64,000 nucleotides of DNA from Promethearchaeota archaeon (GTDB lineage: Archaea; Asgardarchaeota; Lokiarchaeia; Sigyniarchaeales; SOKP01): the NCBI GenBank assembly GCA_019058015.1, contig JAHLWH010000134.1, positions 32,980 to 96,979 on the forward strand, written 5' to 3'. The notes under the pieces are model-generated. The model was not told the origin of the DNA. It worked only from the letters and a program-made list of their open reading frames with translations, and ran no database searches. The translations under genes and the position numbers were made by a program. Positions 50,545 through 64,000 of this stretch are shown here, piece by piece. The stretch's first letter is position 1. The number at the start of each line of letters is the position of its first letter.

Positions 50545-51408
50545 TTATAAAGCACTAAAGAAGTTTAAATATTGCTTAATTGAAATAATCTGAACATAAT
50601 TTGATGAAATTTTTGAATTAATGAAATAAATTTCATTTTTTAATTTTTTAATAATCCACTCTAATAATTTTTCAGCATACTGAAGTTTTTTTAATTTAAT
50701 TGGTTTTGCTTTTTGATTTTCTGAGTACTCTGGTTTAGAATAACGACCCACAACTTCTCCAAAATCCATACCAATAAAAAAAATTTTTTGATTAGGCCGA
50801 ATGAAATTTTTAAGAAAATAGAGAACTCTATCTCCATCTGTAAATCCACCTGGATTCAAAATAATAGATTTTGGCTCAACTTGGGTTGTTCCAATAATAT
50901 TATTCGCAATTTTTACCTCATTTGATATTTTTTTTAAAATATCTACATTATCTCCATGGGCGTGTATAACTATATAATTTGAAAGTTTTCTAAAATAAGA
51001 AAATTTTTCTGGTAAAAATCCATCAAGATCAGTAAAAATAAGGTTTGATTTTATTCCTTTTTCATCGAGAAATACGGCAGCTCCATCTATAGCAATAATT
51101 AATTGATTTATTGGAAATTTATCCTTACTATTTTGAGAGATTTTATCAAAAGTTTTTTCTAAAGAAGGACCGCATCCAAATATGGTTATGAATTTATTTT
51201 TTTGGATTATATTTTTTATATTCTCCAAGTTTTGATGAAAATTTTCATAATTTTGACTATCAAGCAAAATATTTAATAATAAATCTCTGCCGAGCTTATC
51301 CTTCTGTTCATCAAAGTTAAAATCTTTGATTATTTTATAATACCACTCTTTAAATTCAGAAAAAAAATTGATACTTTTAATAATATCTGGGTTAATACTC
51401 TCTCTCAT
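50545..51408 (-). CDS. mptE: 6-hydroxymethyl-7,8-dihydropterin pyrophosphokinase (DUF115)
   Basis: 'GCGPSL', 'TDLDG', 'HAHGDN', 'GTTQ', 'NPGGFTDGDR', 'GMDFG..VGRYSK'. Confidence 0.92.
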   Translation of the reverse strand: MRESINPDIIKSINFFSEFKEWYYKIIKDFNFDEQKDKLGRDLLLNILLDSQNYENFHQNLENIKNIIQKNKFITIFGCGPSLEKTFDKISQNSKDKFPINQLIIAIDGAAVFLDEKGIKSNLIFTDLDGFLPEKFSYFRKLSNYIVIHAHGDNVDILKKISNEVKIANNIIGTTQVEPKSIILNPGGFTDGDRVLYFLKNFIRPNQKIFFIGMDFGEVVGRYSKPEYSENQKAKPIKLKKLQYAEKLLEWIIKKLKNEIYFINSKISSNYVQIISIKQYLNFFSAL

Positions 51409-53868: not shown

Positions 53869-55383
53869 TTGTTGAATTCTATGACACAAATATTAAAGAA
53901 TATGAGTGTACCATCAGAATTTTGGGATTATTTTGAACAAATATTAAAAATCCCAAGATGTTCGGGAAATGAAAAACAGATAAGAGAGTACATAAAATCT
54001 AAAGCGGAACAATTTGGCTTTAAGACAAATGAAGACTCAGTAGGAAATCTTGTGGTAAAGATACCAACATCAATAACTAAACCCAAAAAGAAAGTTGTTT
54101 TACAATGCCATTTAGATATGGTGTGTGAAAAAAATGAGGGAATATCTCATGATTTTTCAAAAGATCCAATAAATCTAAAGGCAATTGAAATTGATGGAGA
54201 AAAATGGGTTACTGCAGAGGGAACAACTTTAGGAGCCGATAATGGAGTAGGCATTGCGTATCTTTTGACTTTAATGAAAAAAATCCATAATAAAGAATTG
54301 ATTTTTAATAATATTGCATTTGATTTATTATTTACAGTTGATGAGGAGAGTGGGCTTGTAGGAGCCTTTAAAATTAATAAAAATTTAATCGATGGAGACA
54401 TATTAATAAACCTTGATTCAGAAGATGATGATACCTTTATAATAGGGTGTGCTGGAGGAATAGATACGACAGCTGAAATTAAGGATAAAAATATTTTTTG
54501 TAATGTGAAAGAGATTAATCTTATACCAATGAATTTATCAATCAAGGGATTGATTGGAGGACATTCTGGGGTAGATATACACAAAGGAAGGGGAAATTCT
54601 TTGAAATTAATTGCAAAAATCTTATGGGAAATAAACAAAAAATTTAATATAGATATAATCTCAATGAATGGAGGTAATCGAAGGAACGCAATTCCACGTG
54701 AATCAAACGCAATAATCTTTATTCATAAAAAAAATGAATCGGAGATTATAAATTTTGTTAATCAAATCAAATCTGAAATAATTTCTGAAATTTCTGAAGT
54801 AGAACCAAATTTAGTAATAATAATTAATACTATAAGTGATCAAAACTTCTATAAAAAATTATCTACAGATATTAAAAATAAATTATTGAATATTCTTTAC
54901 GTTATTCCAAATGGCCCCATTTCTTATCATCCTGAAGATAAAACATTAGTACATACATCAACAAATTTAGCTTCAATTCGAATGGATGAAAATTTAATTA
55001 AAATTGAAACAAGTCAGAGAAGCCTAAGTGAAATCTCTAAAAAGGATATCTATGAAAAAATAGAAGCAATATTCAAGTTATCTGACCTAAATTTTGATGT
55101 TCAGCACTTTGCGGAATATCTTAGATGGACACCTGATTGGAATTCTCCATTATTACAAAAATCAAAACAAATATATATTAATTTATTTAAAGAAGAACCA
55201 AAAATTTTAATAGTTCATGCAGGATTGGAGTGCGGAATATTAAAAAAGCACTTTCCTCATTTAGATATGATTTCTATAGGTCCAAATATAAAAGAGGCTC
55301 ATTCTCCCGATGAACGTCTAAAAGTAAATAGTATCCAAAGAATATGGAAATTTTTAATAGAATTATTAAAAAAGATTGTATAA
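53869..55383 (+). CDS. pepD: Aminoacyl-histidine dipeptidase (M20C)
   Basis: 'IPRCSGNE', 'LQCHLDMVCEK', 'TTLGADNGVG', 'TVDEESG', 'NLDSE', 'GGHSG', 'HAGLECG', 'HSPDE'. Confidence 0.95.
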   Translation: MLNSMTQILKNMSVPSEFWDYFEQILKIPRCSGNEKQIREYIKSKAEQFGFKTNEDSVGNLVVKIPTSITKPKKKVVLQCHLDMVCEKNEGISHDFSKDPINLKAIEIDGEKWVTAEGTTLGADNGVGIAYLLTLMKKIHNKELIFNNIAFDLLFTVDEESGLVGAFKINKNLIDGDILINLDSEDDDTFIIGCAGGIDTTAEIKDKNIFCNVKEINLIPMNLSIKGLIGGHSGVDIHKGRGNSLKLIAKILWEINKKFNIDIISMNGGNRRNAIPRESNAIIFIHKKNESEIINFVNQIKSEIISEISEVEPNLVIIINTISDQNFYKKLSTDIKNKLLNILYVIPNGPISYHPEDKTLVHTSTNLASIRMDENLIKIETSQRSLSEISKKDIYEKIEAIFKLSDLNFDVQHFAEYLRWTPDWNSPLLQKSKQIYINLFKEEPKILIVHAGLECGILKKHFPHLDMISIGPNIKEAHSPDERLKVNSIQRIWKFLIELLKKIV

Positions 55384-55899: not shown

Positions 55900-57024
55900 A
55901 TGAGTTCTTGGAAGGATTTATACTCAGAAGTTAAAAAACGCAAGATGGAAGCTTTAAATAAGAAAGGTGTAGTAGAAGCTGTCGAAAAACATGGAAAAAT
56001 TCTTGCTGTTAGCGGTAGGTATGAAAAACCTGAAAAAATAATTCCACATATGTATGCATCTGAAAAGAAAGTTATTAAACCAAAAGATGTAATGAAAATT
56101 GACCTGAATCATTATGACGTACTTTTGATAGGTTGTCCGGGCAACGAGATCCCTAATGCTGCTCATACAAGAATTTATAAATATGTCGCTGAAAATGGTG
56201 GTTGGTTAATAACAACAGATTGGGCAATTCGAAGTATCGTAGAAATTATATTTCCTGGATTTATAAAATGGAATGGCGCAAGAACTGGCGATACAGTTGT
56301 ACCTTGTCAAATTCTAGAACCAAACCATCCATTTTTAGAGGGTCTGGAAATTGAACTCCAGACAGCTAAATGGGGGGGGAAAAAAAAATCTGAGGAATCT
56401 TTCCGTTGGTGGTTAGAAGCTAAAAGTTTCCCAATAACCATTTTGAATTATACTGCAGTTAAAATATTGATTTCTTCTTTAGTATTACAAAAGAAATGGG
56501 GTGAAGCGCCCGTTTTAGTCTATTTTGATTATGGTAAATCAGGCGGGCGTGTAATTCATTTGATCTCCCATACACATTTACAAAAAGGTAAGGCAAAAGG
56601 AAAATTCGCTTCCGCAATGATTTTAACTAATATCCTTGATGAAAAAGTATCCCACAAAGTTGGATTAAAAAAAGGCACTCCTGCTGGGGCTCAATATCAA
56701 GACTTTGCTCAAACATATCAAACACCCTCTCAAATGCAAAGTGGAACTATTTATACAAATATTCCTATAGCTCCAATGCCAACCTCTGCAACAACAACTA
56801 CTAATACGACTGGATTGGATTTAACGGGGACCTCAAAAATTGTAGAAGTCCCAAATAATTTTCCCCCAAGTCAAAATTGTGCTTTATGTGATTCGAACTT
56901 TGAGAATTATACGGGAAAGATTTATATTTGCAAAGAGTGCGGTGTACCCTATCACGAACAATGCTTGAACATCCAAATAAATGAGGGTGTTTGTAAAATA
57001 TGCGGTAGAATATTATTGTGGTAA
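55900..57024 (+). CDS. Protein with class-I GATase-like N-domain, P/T/Q-rich linker and C-terminal C4HC3 RING/PHD-type zinc finger
   Basis: 'YDVLLIGCPG...GGWLITTDWA' and 'CALC-x13-CKEC-x4-HEQC-x9-CKIC'. Confidence 0.75.
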   Translation: MSSWKDLYSEVKKRKMEALNKKGVVEAVEKHGKILAVSGRYEKPEKIIPHMYASEKKVIKPKDVMKIDLNHYDVLLIGCPGNEIPNAAHTRIYKYVAENGGWLITTDWAIRSIVEIIFPGFIKWNGARTGDTVVPCQILEPNHPFLEGLEIELQTAKWGGKKKSEESFRWWLEAKSFPITILNYTAVKILISSLVLQKKWGEAPVLVYFDYGKSGGRVIHLISHTHLQKGKAKGKFASAMILTNILDEKVSHKVGLKKGTPAGAQYQDFAQTYQTPSQMQSGTIYTNIPIAPMPTSATTTTNTTGLDLTGTSKIVEVPNNFPPSQNCALCDSNFENYTGKIYICKECGVPYHEQCLNIQINEGVCKICGRILLW

Positions 57025-57443: not shown

Positions 57444-58540
57444 TTGAAAACAAAAAAAATCTTGGAAAAAGATCTTAAAAGTCAATTATTTGATGTTAAG
57501 CTGGGGGATTTTAACGGAGATGGAAATTTTGAAATCGTAGTTTGTTCAGAAGATGGGAGAGTTTTAATTCTTTCAGATGACGGGGAAATTATTCATGAAT
57601 TATTCATCTCCGAGAGTAAGCCAATCTGGGATATTGAACTTTATGATATAACCCAAAATGGGAAAGTTGAATTAATATCAGGAGGCATGGATGGATTATT
57701 AAATGTTTTTTATTTGAATAATTCTAAAATTGAGCTTTTATGGTCTCAACAATTCCAGAGTTCGGTATCTGGTTTTTTCATTGATGATATAAATGATGAT
57801 TTGCAATTTGAATTAATTGCTTATGGACTTGATAAGTCATTAAGAGTTTTAAACCTACAGAATGGCAACTTAATCTGGGGGCAATTATTTGAAAGCGGAA
57901 TTGGAACTGTAAAAGCCTATGATTGTGATGGAGATGGACAAATTGAACTTATTGGAGGCGGAAATGATGGAACAATAAGAGTTTTAATGGAAAAGATGGC
58001 TCCTTAAAATGGTTCAGGAAATTTGCTCGAAATATTAGATGCTTTTGCTGTTTTCCGAATAAACAAACTGTTTTATGCGGTGGGGATGATAAAAAAATAT
58101 ATTTTCTTAATGGAGTTAATGGAGATATAATTAAATCGCTTCCAATGGAAGAATATGTCTGGGGAAGTATCTCCTATTTAAATAAAAATAATCGATCTAA
58201 AGCATTAGTTTATTCATATTGTTTCGATTTCCTTGAGGATAACTTTATTAAAAATAAATTAAAATTCAAATCGAAACTCCTTTGCCTTAATGATAACCTT
58301 GAGATGGATTGGGAGCATGCAGGATTTAATATTGAGGATCTCAAAATAATTCAAACTAATTTACAATATATTTTTCTGGGAACGACTAAAGGAAAACTTA
58401 TTATACTTGATGAAAATAATGGCACTATTGTAGAAGAGATCACTCTTAGCTCTTCAATTAATAAACTTACGTTTTGGAATAATTATCTTTATTGTGTAAC
58501 TAGAGATGGAAAACTAATTATAATAAAACTTCAAGAGTAA
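57444..58540 (+). pseudogene. FG-GAP/VCBS-repeat beta-propeller protein, split by a 1-nt frameshift near 57985
   Basis: DxNGDGxxEI repeats in 57444-58007; adding one T at GTTTTAAT continues as 'FNGKDGSLKWFRKFARNIRC...LCGGDDKKIYFLNG' into the 58145-58540 ORF. Confidence 0.8.
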
Positions 58541-61605: not shown

Positions 61606-63042
61606 ATGACTTCAAACCTGACTTTAATTTTTAACAAAGGTACTAAACGCTCTCAACATAATTTCATTCCTGAAATGGATATAGATAAAGTTGATTTACT
61701 CAAAATAATACCCTCATCTTTTCAACGAGAAGATTTACCCTTACCCGATATTCCAGAGGTAAAAATTGTCCGCCATTATACCGAGTTGAGTAGGAAAAAT
61801 TATGGGATAGATTCAGGAATTTATCCGCTTGGTTCATGCACTATGAAATATAATCCTAAAATTAATGAGGTGATCACTCGACTTCCAGCTTTTTTCCAAA
61901 TACATCCTCTTCAAGAAGAAAATCAAGGAGCTCTTGAACTAATACACCAACTCTCAGAGCTACTCATAGAAATTACCGGTATGGATGGATTTACCTTTCA
62001 ACCTGCTGCGGGAGCTCATGGAGAGTTAACCGGGATTTTAATAATGAAAAAATATTTCGAGAATAAAAATCTCAAAAAAAATAAAATATTAATACCAGAT
62101 TCCGCCCATGGAACTAACCCATCATCTGCAAAAATGGCAGGTTTTTCAATAATCGAAGTACGATCAAATGATGCGGGAGAAATTCCACTTGATCACATTG
62201 AATTCGCAATGCAGCAGGGCGATGTAGCGGGTATAATGTTAACCAATCCCAATACTTTGGGTATATTTGACCGTCAAATTAAGGATATCACGAATATCAT
62301 ACACAAATATGGGGGTTTATGCTACTATGATGGCGCTAATTTGAATCCTATGTTAGGGATTTGCCGCCCAGGGGATATGGGTTTTGATATCATCCATCTG
62401 AATTTCCATAAAACTTTCTCAACTCCACATGGTGGAGGTGGTCCTGGTTCTGGACCTGTGGGTGTTATTAAAGAACTCGTTCCATATCTACCCGGACCCC
62501 ATATTATCGCTACAGAACAGGAATTTGTATGTCGAGAAAAAACCAACAATTCTATTGGTCGGATTAAGTGTTTTTGGGGTAATTTTGGAGTTATTGTGCG
62601 TGCATATGCGTATATTCTCGCGTTAGGTGCCGAAGGTCTTAAACGAGTGGGTCAAATGGCTGTATTAAATGCAAATTACTTGCGGGTTCTTTTAAAAGAA
62701 AAATATCACCTCCCTTACGATCGCATATGTCAACATGAATTTGTACTTTCAGATCGGGGAATTCCAAATGAAGTAACTACTGAAGACATTGCAAAACGTA
62801 TTCTTGATTATGGATTATATGCTCCAACCATATACTTTCCGTTAATAGTAAAAGGTGCATTGATGATTGAACCAACCGAAACCGAGTCAAAAGCTTCATT
62901 GGATAATTTCGTTAATGTGATGAATAAAATCTATAATGAAGCAAAAACTGCTCCTGAACTTCTTAAAAATGCTCCCCATAACACACCTGTTAAACGTCTC
63001 GATGCTGTTCTCGCTGCTCGAAACCCAATATTACATGATTAA
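61606..63042 (+). CDS. gcvPB: Glycine dehydrogenase subunit 2
   Basis: 'YPLGSCTMKYNP', 'QPAAGAHGE', PLP Lys 'HLNFHKTFSTPHGGGGPG', 'EPTETES'. Confidence 0.97.
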   Translation: MTSNLTLIFNKGTKRSQHNFIPEMDIDKVDLLKIIPSSFQREDLPLPDIPEVKIVRHYTELSRKNYGIDSGIYPLGSCTMKYNPKINEVITRLPAFFQIHPLQEENQGALELIHQLSELLIEITGMDGFTFQPAAGAHGELTGILIMKKYFENKNLKKNKILIPDSAHGTNPSSAKMAGFSIIEVRSNDAGEIPLDHIEFAMQQGDVAGIMLTNPNTLGIFDRQIKDITNIIHKYGGLCYYDGANLNPMLGICRPGDMGFDIIHLNFHKTFSTPHGGGGPGSGPVGVIKELVPYLPGPHIIATEQEFVCREKTNNSIGRIKCFWGNFGVIVRAYAYILALGAEGLKRVGQMAVLNANYLRVLLKEKYHLPYDRICQHEFVLSDRGIPNEVTTEDIAKRILDYGLYAPTIYFPLIVKGALMIEPTETESKASLDNFVNVMNKIYNEAKTAPELLKNAPHNTPVKRLDAVLAARNPILHD

Positions 63043-63112
63043 AATATTTGAAGATTTAAGAAAAATAAAAATATTTTGGATATTTATAATACTACCTGAT
63101 ATTACTTTTATC

Positions 63113-64000
63113 TCATGGATCATTTCTAAACGGGTGACGAGCACTTTCTGCATTCTTTATGCCATCTTCTGCAGTTGGCAGACCTTCCATCGCCTTTCGA
63201 ATAGCGTTCCGAGTTGCTTTAAAGTTATTTATGAAAATCCGTTTGCGACTACTTGCACTGGGATGAATAAAGACATTAGCAATAATCACTAAATCTTCTG
63301 AAGCATCTTTAGGAAGAATTCCATCTTCAACACATTTCATTACCGCTTTCGCTACTGCTGCTTGAGCTGGTCCATAAACGAGACTTGCTTGACGTAGCGA
63401 CTGGACCTTAACTGTAGGAATCATTACTGTTGCCGGTTTGACTTGCATATTAGGTTCAAGAATCACTTGAAGCCCTTCACGACCTTTCGCAGGATGTGTT
63501 AGAGCACGAGCATATGCTTCACCAACAGGACCTTTCTTATCACCAATAAGAAGATCTATATGAGCAAGTTCGGCTCTATTTCCTACAAGTGATTCACCAA
63601 CCCTTAAACTAAAGTCTGAAATTATCTGAGGAGTAATATCAACAGAATAGAAACGACTCGTAAGTTCTTTCTCGGCAACTTCAATTTTAATTTCCTTCTT
63701 TTTGAGTAAACCTAACTTCTCTAATTCTATTCTAAATTCATCCCAAAGCTCATAGGAAAGTGTATCACCCATTATTACAGGCTGTCGAGTAACACCAACA
63801 GGAATATTCATCATATTCAAACACTCTTTAGGTCCTAAAGCACCAGAACCAACAATCATTCGCGCAAACTTTTGAATCTTTTTTTGTAGAATCTGAGCTT
63901 CCGCAAGACGTTTATTTTTTACATGATCATAAAGTTCGAGCCAAATCTTTGGAATCACATTAGCTGAGGCAAGAATCACCCCTGCAGCACCACCAGCTAG
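63113..64000 (-). CDS. fae: DapA/DHDPS-family aldolase fused to formaldehyde-activating enzyme (5' end outside the window)
   Basis: Frame open to the window edge (LAGGAAGVILASANVIP... = DapA-family C-terminus), then Fae motifs 'VGESLVG..ELAHIDLLIG', 'GPAQAAVAKAV', 'VFIHP', 'HPF'. Confidence 0.85.
   Translation of the reverse strand, partial: LAGGAAGVILASANVIPKIWLELYDHVKNKRLAEAQILQKKIQKFARMIVGSGALGPKECLNMMNIPVGVTRQPVIMGDTLSYELWDEFRIELEKLGLLKKKEIKIEVAEKELTSRFYSVDITPQIISDFSLRVGESLVGNRAELAHIDLLIGDKKGPVGEAYARALTHPAKGREGLQVILEPNMQVKPATVMIPTVKVQSLRQASLVYGPAQAAVAKAVMKCVEDGILPKDASEDLVIIANVFIHPSASSRKRIFINNFKATRNAIRKAMEGLPTAEDGIKNAESARHPFRNDP

Follow-up and report, generated by a model that had tools for sequence, protein, structure and literature searches.

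What would a pyruvate aldolase do in one polypeptide with the formaldehyde-activating enzyme (Fae)? The question is raised by the end of a 64,000-nucleotide stretch of DNA (the window) from a Promethearchaeota archaeon (GenBank assembly GCA_019058015.1, contig JAHLWH010000134.1, positions 32,980 to 96,979), in which one reading frame joins the C-terminal part of a DapA-like aldolase to a complete Fae domain. In this work, we conclude that the gene very probably encodes a neofunctionalised aldolase, other than DapA, whose function is tied to Fae. The full-length protein would be a bifunctional Asgard enzyme of ~500 aa with an N-terminal class I pyruvate aldolase and a C-terminal Fae. For its net reaction, analogy and gene context point to 4-hydroxy-2-oxobutanoate (HOB) + tetrahydromethanopterin (H4MPT) <-> pyruvate + 5,10-methylene-H4MPT + H2O, an assignment to which we give about an even chance.

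The window ends together with its contig (C129, 96,979 bases), so the fusion gene is cut by the assembly and its 295 codons are the 3' part only; judged by full-length relatives, another ~205 codons at the 5' side are missing from the contig. The frame is open at its 5' side, encodes 295 aa and closes with a stop codon at 63113-63115. It comprises the last ~75 aldolase residues, a linker of ~55 residues, in which a conserved helix motif is followed by a variable stretch reaching the start of Fae, and the complete Fae domain. The models PF00701 (DHDPS; residues 4-76, E 1.8e-5, 24.1 bits, cut-off 22.1) and PF08714 (Fae; residues 134-291, profile positions 1-158 of 159, E 2e-57, 194.1 bits, cut-off 27) both matched, in agreement with the initial annotation, which had read the frame as an aldolase C-terminus continued by a Fae with the AHIDL histidine and whose quoted peptides are all found in the translation. 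A second contig of the assembly (C11, 3,054 bases) carries a fusion copy 87% identical to that of the window. There a single frame of 376 aa holds the complete aldolase half (PF00701 at 251.6 bits over positions 2-273 of the 289 in the profile), followed by the same linker and by the start of Fae (~40 residues). Both copies are truncated at contig ends and are only 87% identical where they overlap; it looks as if the assembly had been broken here by the presence of two strains or of two gene copies. Among the relatives listed, 120 of 120 carry both domains at 75-97% identity, mostly with 495-500 aa. Furthermore, a public contig of 4,622 nt spans 62900-63988 with 11 substitutions and no gap, and in the public contigs compared from 4 runs, all of them DNA, no indel is listed within the fusion gene, except for one contig joint (X6) at which 232 nt are skipped and whose short side has only 29 letters and is flagged unreliable. 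Contigs of three runs extend beyond 63997, and their continuation, compared by eye, is the stretch that full-length relatives have there. No stop between the two domains, the finding that would have undone the initial proposal, was present in the second contig, the listed relatives or the public contigs. That two genes were wrongly joined by the assembly or by gene calling, as the cut copies and the X6 skip might suggest, has practically no chance against a single frame in two contigs, in 120 relatives from several sources and in 20 loci of other genomes; the fusion is confirmed as uninterrupted and conserved.

The residues of the aldolase half were compared in an alignment of 27 fusion sequences (21 stretches), 12 fused and 62 unfused representatives, 20 unfused Asgard DHDPS-family proteins and E. 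coli DapA, NanA, YagE and YjhH; the reference set comprised representatives P0121-P0199 and P0255 only, of 150 listed. Column numbers follow E. coli DapA, with the columns taken from the alignment. For the window's gene, the catalytic columns are sited beyond the window end and were read from the C11 copy and full-length relatives. The Lys161, Tyr133, Thr45, Gly186 and Asp188 columns are intact in all 27 fusion sequences, so the Schiff-base lysine and the tyrosine which the initial annotation had singled out for checking are in place; column 44 is Thr or Ser throughout, and the GTTGE motif is kept. On the other hand, Arg138 at the active-site entrance of E. coli DapA, which we take to bind the carboxylate of aspartate semialdehyde, occurs in none of the 27 (Cys in 18, Val in 7, Leu in 2) and in none of the 12 fused representatives. 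The residue is Cys in the window's lineage, and in the PDB alignments YNVPSRT of M. jannaschii DHDPS faces YNIPSCT of the fusion. Arg stands at this column in E. coli DapA, in the canonical proteins of the window's own family (f1) and in f13 proteins, and Leu in NanA, YagE and YjhH, which are not DapA enzymes. The pocket signature of the fused clade is Q137, C/V138, H187 (W in the window's lineage), L204, A205, S206 and G248.

A tree was built from 126 rows with the quick search of IQ-TREE under LG+G4, no sequence having been removed by the 240-residue filter. All the fused sequences come together in a single 41-row clade, whose Shimodaira-Hasegawa-like approximate likelihood ratio (SH-aLRT) support is 99; two short 'unfused' rows fall inside it and may be fragments. 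This clade lies outside an 80-row clade (97) holding E. coli DapA, the canonical f1 DapAs and YagE/YjhH, as the initial annotation had anticipated by treating the aldolase half as something other than canonical DapA. Arg138 is present in 36 of the 126 rows and in 0 of the 41 rows of the fused clade. In the approximately unbiased (AU) test, a single clade of all Arg-bearing rows was not rejected (p 0.0587). Judging from these sequence comparisons, the aldolase half belongs to the DHDPS/NAL class I superfamily (PF00701) and is very probably not the housekeeping DapA.

Most close relatives are automatically named '4-hydroxy-tetrahydrodipicolinate synthase', and the alternative that the protein is indeed a genuine DapA, synthesizing 4-hydroxy-tetrahydrodipicolinate (HTPA) and carrying Fae by chance, can appeal to its best database matches. 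The best PDB match of the aldolase half is DapA (2yxg, E 2.8e-52), the dapA model TIGR00674 scores 228.7 bits on the fusion against a cut-off of 206.15 (329.7 for a canonical DapA of the same genus), and no other canonical dapA was found in the window's assembly. Nevertheless, we regard this alternative as very improbable, because Arg138 is absent from all fusions, the fused sequences form a separate clade, and the lysine genes are found elsewhere. This last point comes from a phylum survey of 151 sampled genomes in 27 families. In f1, a ~300-aa DapA scoring 324-345 bits is present in 22 of 26 genomes, of which 13 also have the fusion; eight genomes have canonical DapA and dapB and no fusion, and one has neither gene type. 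It is the canonical dapA, not the fusion, that adjoins dapB, in some genomes in the order dapF-lysA-dapB-dapA. Contigs of the window's genome (C123) and of genome G138 begin inside dapB, which explains the missing canonical dapA in both, and that of the window's genome most likely fell into the C123 gap. Across the families, dapB matches came from f1 alone (23 of 25 genomes, plus the fragment in the window's genome); the 59 genomes sampled from the other eight fusion-bearing families gave none (f7 0/26, f12 0/19, f13 0/3, f16 0/5, f21 0/3, and 0/1 each in f9, f18 and f27), so the fusion cannot feed the diaminopimelate (DAP) pathway there. Two other kinds of DHDPS-family protein were noted along the way. 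In f13 (L043, L044, L047), ~295-aa DapA-like proteins have Arg138, yet dapB was found in none of the three genomes. The window's genome holds a third, very divergent DHDPS-family gene on contig C252 (313 aa, TIGR00674 139 bits), which lacks GTTGE and has Phe at the Tyr133 column and keeps the lysine.

Close relatives of the fusion are labelled Promethearchaeota/Promethearchaeia, some of them Hod-, Hermod-, Thor- or Odinarchaeota, and a few have odd bin names. With frames of ~465-530 aa containing both domains as the criterion, the survey found the fusion in 9 of 27 families (f1, f7, f9, f12, f13, f16, f18, f21 and f27), and it is confined in this sample to families which also have Fae or H4MPT-type genes. 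When the aldolase half was the sole query of an exhaustive search, fused representatives reached down to 37% identity, all with a Fae domain according to our own hidden Markov model, and the best unfused proteins were ~40-42% identical. Two divergent fused representatives, P0136 and P0255, have Ala and Leu in place of the Schiff-base lysine at the K161 column, and their aldolase domains are probably inactive.

The Fae half of the window's fusion type looks competent on the basis of its sequence. It is collinear with residues 8-166 of the Methylobacterium extorquens enzyme (1y5y, E 9.6e-32) and retains every motif that the common alignment assigns to that Fae, including the AHIDL histidine, which we take to be catalytic. 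The model TIGR03126 (Fae) gives 188.5 bits against a cut-off of 118 on P0002, a protein 97% identical to the window fragment. The window's genome also encodes methenyl-H4MPT cyclohydrolase (Mch, 368.6 bits), an MptE-like protein and, on contig C197, a separate genuine fusion of Fae with hexulose-6-phosphate synthase (Fae-Hps; NF009833, 539 bits). Judging from these genes, the organism uses H4MPT, and the classical Fae fusion is already present in it; the aldolase-Fae gene is a second, different Fae fusion of this genome.

The fused clade splits into type A (~467 aa) and type B (~495 aa), the window's gene being type B, and in families f7 and f9 genes of both types stand in tandem. In the type A proteins the AHIDL histidine is missing, as are the ~25 residues at the C-terminal end of Fae; the type B proteins of f7 keep this histidine and the tail and have lost the ILEPN and YGPAQ regions. 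These losses, together with those of motifs or the tail in several representatives, the score of the f7 type A copy below the Fae cut-off and the aldolase lysine missing from two representatives, could be explained if the Fae-like domain were a non-catalytic oligomerisation or regulatory module on an unrelated aldolase, for example a sugar-acid aldolase like that for 2-keto-3-deoxygluconate (KDG). We find this explanation improbable, since the window's type has every conserved Fae motif at 188-194 bits and the fusion is limited to families with Fae or H4MPT-type genes. Moreover, what one member of a tandem pair lacks the other keeps, and this suggests a heteromer with one full site, not simple decay. 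If the active sites of Fae lie between subunits, such a pattern would fit a heteromeric Fae ring with complementary half-sites.

By comparing the surroundings of the gene, a same-strand gene directly upstream, 15-25 nt away, was found to be the consistent neighbour of the fusion. In f1 and f27 this partner belongs to cluster 4 (on C11 in the window's genome), and in f12, f9 and f18 to cluster 2, which in f13 is encoded nearby. Neither cluster has a Pfam or NCBIfam match, and their members are named 'hypothetical'. Both are widespread, with at least 8,000 matches for cluster 4 (8,000 of 8,000 scored candidates at E <= 1e-5) and 2,770 for cluster 2. The structure model of cluster 2 (predicted local distance difference test, pLDDT, 87.6) is a TIM barrel whose top Foldseek matches are metal-dependent class II aldolases at a template modelling (TM) score of only ~0.5, which indicates a fold class and not a function; that of cluster 4 (pLDDT 68.7) gave no Foldseek match at E <= 0.001. 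Profile searches of the PDB with both clusters returned nothing relevant, and a search of the protein atlas no usable match. The sequences of the two clusters give a suggestive indication that they are homologous. In the survey, cluster 2 occurs only in fusion-bearing families, plus one weaker match in f19. In f1, cluster 4 is present in 16 of 16 fusion genomes, eight genomes lack both genes, and two are discordant and fragmentary; given this co-inheritance, the pair behaves as an accessory module. Cluster 4 is also found in f5 and f22, families without any Fae or DHDPS match, where it is followed in an operon by a class I/II aminotransferase, homoserine dehydrogenase (NF004912, 424.5 bits against a cut-off of 373) and aldehyde:ferredoxin oxidoreductase (AOR). 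The enzymes of this operon would connect HOB, homoserine, aspartate semialdehyde and aspartate, and might serve either as an aspartate/homoserine route that needs no ATP or in C4 catabolism. What the two contexts of cluster 4 most simply have in common would be a C4 compound at the level of HOB or homoserine, handled in the one by the aminotransferase, homoserine dehydrogenase and AOR and in the other by aldolase-Fae; this lends the HOB reaction indirect support.

We hypothesize that the two domains carry out the HOB reaction as follows. The aldolase domain, a separate paralogue derived from the DHDPS/NAL family and not the cell's DapA, would hold pyruvate in a Schiff-base linkage to the conserved lysine. 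The pyruvate enamine would then attack formaldehyde to give HOB, or, in the reverse direction, HOB would be cleaved at its C3-C4 bond. From the fusion to Fae, from analogy and from gene context, formaldehyde is the inferred aldehyde and pyruvate the donor, hence HOB. The fused Fae would condense the formaldehyde with H4MPT, or supply it from methylene-H4MPT, so that none escapes, and the net process would be a reversible hydroxymethyl transfer between methylene-H4MPT and pyruvate via two active sites. The fusion would act as an accessory module with the TIM-barrel protein encoded directly upstream. In a catabolic option, a C4 precursor would be converted via HOB to pyruvate and a C1 unit entering the H4MPT branch; in an anabolic option, a C1 unit and pyruvate would yield HOB and then homoserine. 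A wider version is possible but doubtful: a dedicated natural H4MPT-dependent 'pyruvate hydroxymethyltransferase' of two fused domains, reversibly linking the methylene-H4MPT pool of the Wood-Ljungdahl pathway to HOB and, by transamination, to homoserine, with a new TIM-barrel family which feeds or drains HOB and with Fae heteromers of complementary half-sites formed by the tandem copies.

The most serious competitor concerns the substrate. Formaldehyde could react with another 2-oxo acid donor, or another 4-hydroxy-2-oxo acid could be cleaved to a product other than formaldehyde while Fae scavenges formaldehyde made elsewhere, for example by the glycine cleavage system or Hps. The pocket residues Q137, C/V138, H/W187, L204 and G248 are unlike those of DapA and of KDG-type aldolases, specificity is not fixed by sequence alone, and the two paralogous fusion types could differ in substrate. 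For the scavenging version, it was reported that the glycine cleavage system leaks formaldehyde in vitro (PMC7227101). However, the columns with which DapA contacts pyruvate (Thr44/45, Tyr133 and Lys161) are conserved, and a covalent fusion kept over 37-97% identity argues for coupled chemistry; a separate Fae-Hps is already encoded in the genome, and the adjacency to the glycine cleavage genes is limited to one genus. We consider this competitor unlikely, if still worth weighing, and retain the HOB reaction as the preferred assignment.

Several points weigh against the HOB reading and the non-DapA assignment beneath it. No sequence signature defines HOB aldolase activity, the substrate is assigned by analogy and gene context, and the partner proteins received no assignable function from Pfam, NCBIfam, PDB profile and Foldseek searches. 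The alignment between clusters 2 and 4 is collinear but weak (hhalign E 0.0056, probability 6.6%), in f7 the fusion and the partner do not lie side by side, and the aminotransferase/homoserine dehydrogenase/AOR context could instead reflect ordinary homoserine biosynthesis. On the side of the aldolase, its score is still above the NCBI dapA equivalog cut-off, if marginally, the role of Arg138 is taken from general background, and 3 of the 26 f1 genomes (the window's own, G109 and G138) show the fusion only and no canonical DapA. On the side of Fae, the f7 domains are degenerate, at 85 bits (type A) and 121.8 bits against the cut-off of 118.

A role for the fusion as a replacement of PanB, that is, as a methylene-H4MPT-dependent analogue of ketopantoate hydroxymethyltransferase, was considered and rejected, since PanB co-occurs with the fusion (24 of 26 genomes in f7, 18 of 19 in f12 and 17 of 25 in f1). 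Separately, PanB was not found in the window's genome, in the remaining two genomes from its genus (each 100% complete) or in the genera g3 and g5, and was found in most other f1 members of the survey.

Among the known systems, Fae-Hps, whose function is known from methanogens, is the nearest in design, because there too Fae is covalently joined to an aldolase-type enzyme with formaldehyde as a substrate or product in H4MPT-using archaea. In the present fusion, however, Fae is preceded on its N-terminal side by a Schiff-base aldolase of class I from the DHDPS family, whereas in Fae-Hps it is followed on its C-terminal side by Hps, a metal-dependent enzyme of the OMPDC fold. The fusion matches NF009833 over its Fae half only (157.7 bits against a cut-off of 274), and its substrate would be pyruvate or HOB instead of ribulose-5-phosphate/hexulose-6-phosphate. 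With DapA (TIGR00674; 2yxg, 1dhp) the aldolase half shares the fold, the best sequence match and the Lys161, Tyr133 and GTTGE columns; it differs from it in Arg138, in its clade, in a lower model score and in having no link to dapB/lysA. YagE and YjhH, the aldolases of the KDG/2-keto-3-deoxypentonate (KDP) type, and NanA are likewise class I pyruvate aldolases, which cleave 4-hydroxy-2-oxo acids to pyruvate and an aldehyde, and their Leu at the Arg138 column is hydrophobic, comparable to the Cys, Val or Leu of the fusions. They belong to other clades, however, have no fused Fae, and carry Tyr at column 187 (H/W in the fusions) and S, T or G and F or V at columns 204 and 248 (L and G in the fusions). 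PanB and serine hydroxymethyltransferase (SHMT) resemble the proposed enzyme in that the net reaction is formally a hydroxymethyl transfer between a methylene-pterin and a carbon nucleophile, but they use a single active site and not two fused domains. The chemistry proposed here, pyruvate + formaldehyde <-> HOB, is that of the class II HOB aldolases such as E. coli RhmA (PMC8879981), which differ in being metal-dependent members of an unrelated family whose activity is promiscuous and not coupled to a C1 carrier. The same review describes pyruvate aldolases condensing formaldehyde to HOB, which it calls a non-native metabolite (PMC8879981); the HOB-forming cases found in print are class II enzymes used in engineering.

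In the open-access papers and preprints searched, no description of a DHDPS/DapA-Fae fusion was found, in line with the view of the initial annotation that it is undescribed, and an excerpt of a paper on Asgard metabolism mentions Fae-HPS only (PMC11291895). The present fusion is thus a second type of Fae fusion after Fae-Hps, and its aldolase half a new DHDPS subfamily. Thousands of Asgard proteins in the databases are automatically named DapA on a marginal score, and Asgard archaea are the closest prokaryotic relatives of eukaryotes. Reconstructions which trust this name infer a lysine step that is probably absent and overlook a connection of C1 with C3/C4 metabolism. If the HOB reaction is correct, the fusion would be the first enzyme in nature devoted to pyruvate + formaldehyde <-> HOB and would show how H4MPT-using fermenters or acetogens keep formaldehyde off the free pool. 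As a two-domain pyruvate hydroxymethyltransferase it would be the natural counterpart of reactions of the synthetic 'homoserine cycle', and it would offer synthetic methylotrophy a natural class I HOB aldolase with built-in channelling of formaldehyde.

Coordinates of the fusion gene, its partners and other features (window positions unless a contig or locus is named)
Feature	Position	Strand	Basis or remark
Aldolase-Fae fusion gene, 3' part (295 codons + stop)	63113..64000	(-)	open frame; relatives 495-500 aa
C-terminal part of DHDPS/NAL class I aldolase domain	63773..63991	(-)	fragment residues 4-76; profile positions 198-272 of 289
End of aldolase fold and conserved linker	63602..63772	(-)	alignment of 20 loci and representatives
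Complete Fae domain with AHIDL, ILEPN..KP, YGPAQ and ARHPF motifs	63128..63601	(-)	Pfam and alignment
Cluster 4 representative	G000 contig C11:628-1911 (= L005:163-1446)		428 aa
Cluster 2 representative	L036:10432-11376		315 aa
Tandem pair loci	L026-L030 (f7), L034 (f9)		e.g. L027:8871-10268 and L027:10276-11748
Cluster-4/aminotransferase/homoserine dehydrogenase/AOR operon	L141-L146, L154 (f5, f22)		e.g. L142:8318-10538, L141:10630-12423
MptE-like gene	50755-51252		
M20/M28-type peptidase gene and two adjoining frames	53869-55383, 55900-57024, 57444-58007		
Third DHDPS-family gene of the window's genome	C252:7629-8516 (L006:1462-2400)		313 aa

The initial annotation had also drawn on the glycine cleavage genes and mptE in the window as a fitting context. 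Both are real, and a gcvT-H-PA-PB operon was confirmed next to the fusion; the support they lend is weak, because the operon is convergent with the fusion and, among the 22 stretches compared, adjoins it in 3, all from the window's genus (L018, L019 and the window itself), and the MptE-like gene lies 12 kb away. An M20 deacylase of the ArgE/DapE family, a gene of the CitG family and one similar to D-threonine aldolase/D-serine dehydratase also recur near the fusion. In f12 (L031-L033, L037), the CitG-family gene (PF01874, 208.8 bits) adjoins the fusion on the opposite strand, the D-threonine-aldolase/D-serine-dehydratase-like gene is upstream of it and the deacylase is nearby. CitG homologues are part of methanopterin-linked gene islands. 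The breaks of the assembly inside the fusion gene (the ends of C129 and C11) and inside dapB (the start of C123) suggest a strain mixture in the bin. In the window itself, 8 kb separate the fusion from a gene for a peptidase of the M20/M28 type; of the two frames beside this gene, one of 374 aa has a PHD-finger-like match below the cut-off (E 5.7e-5) and one of 187 aa matches FG-GAP/beta-propeller repeats.

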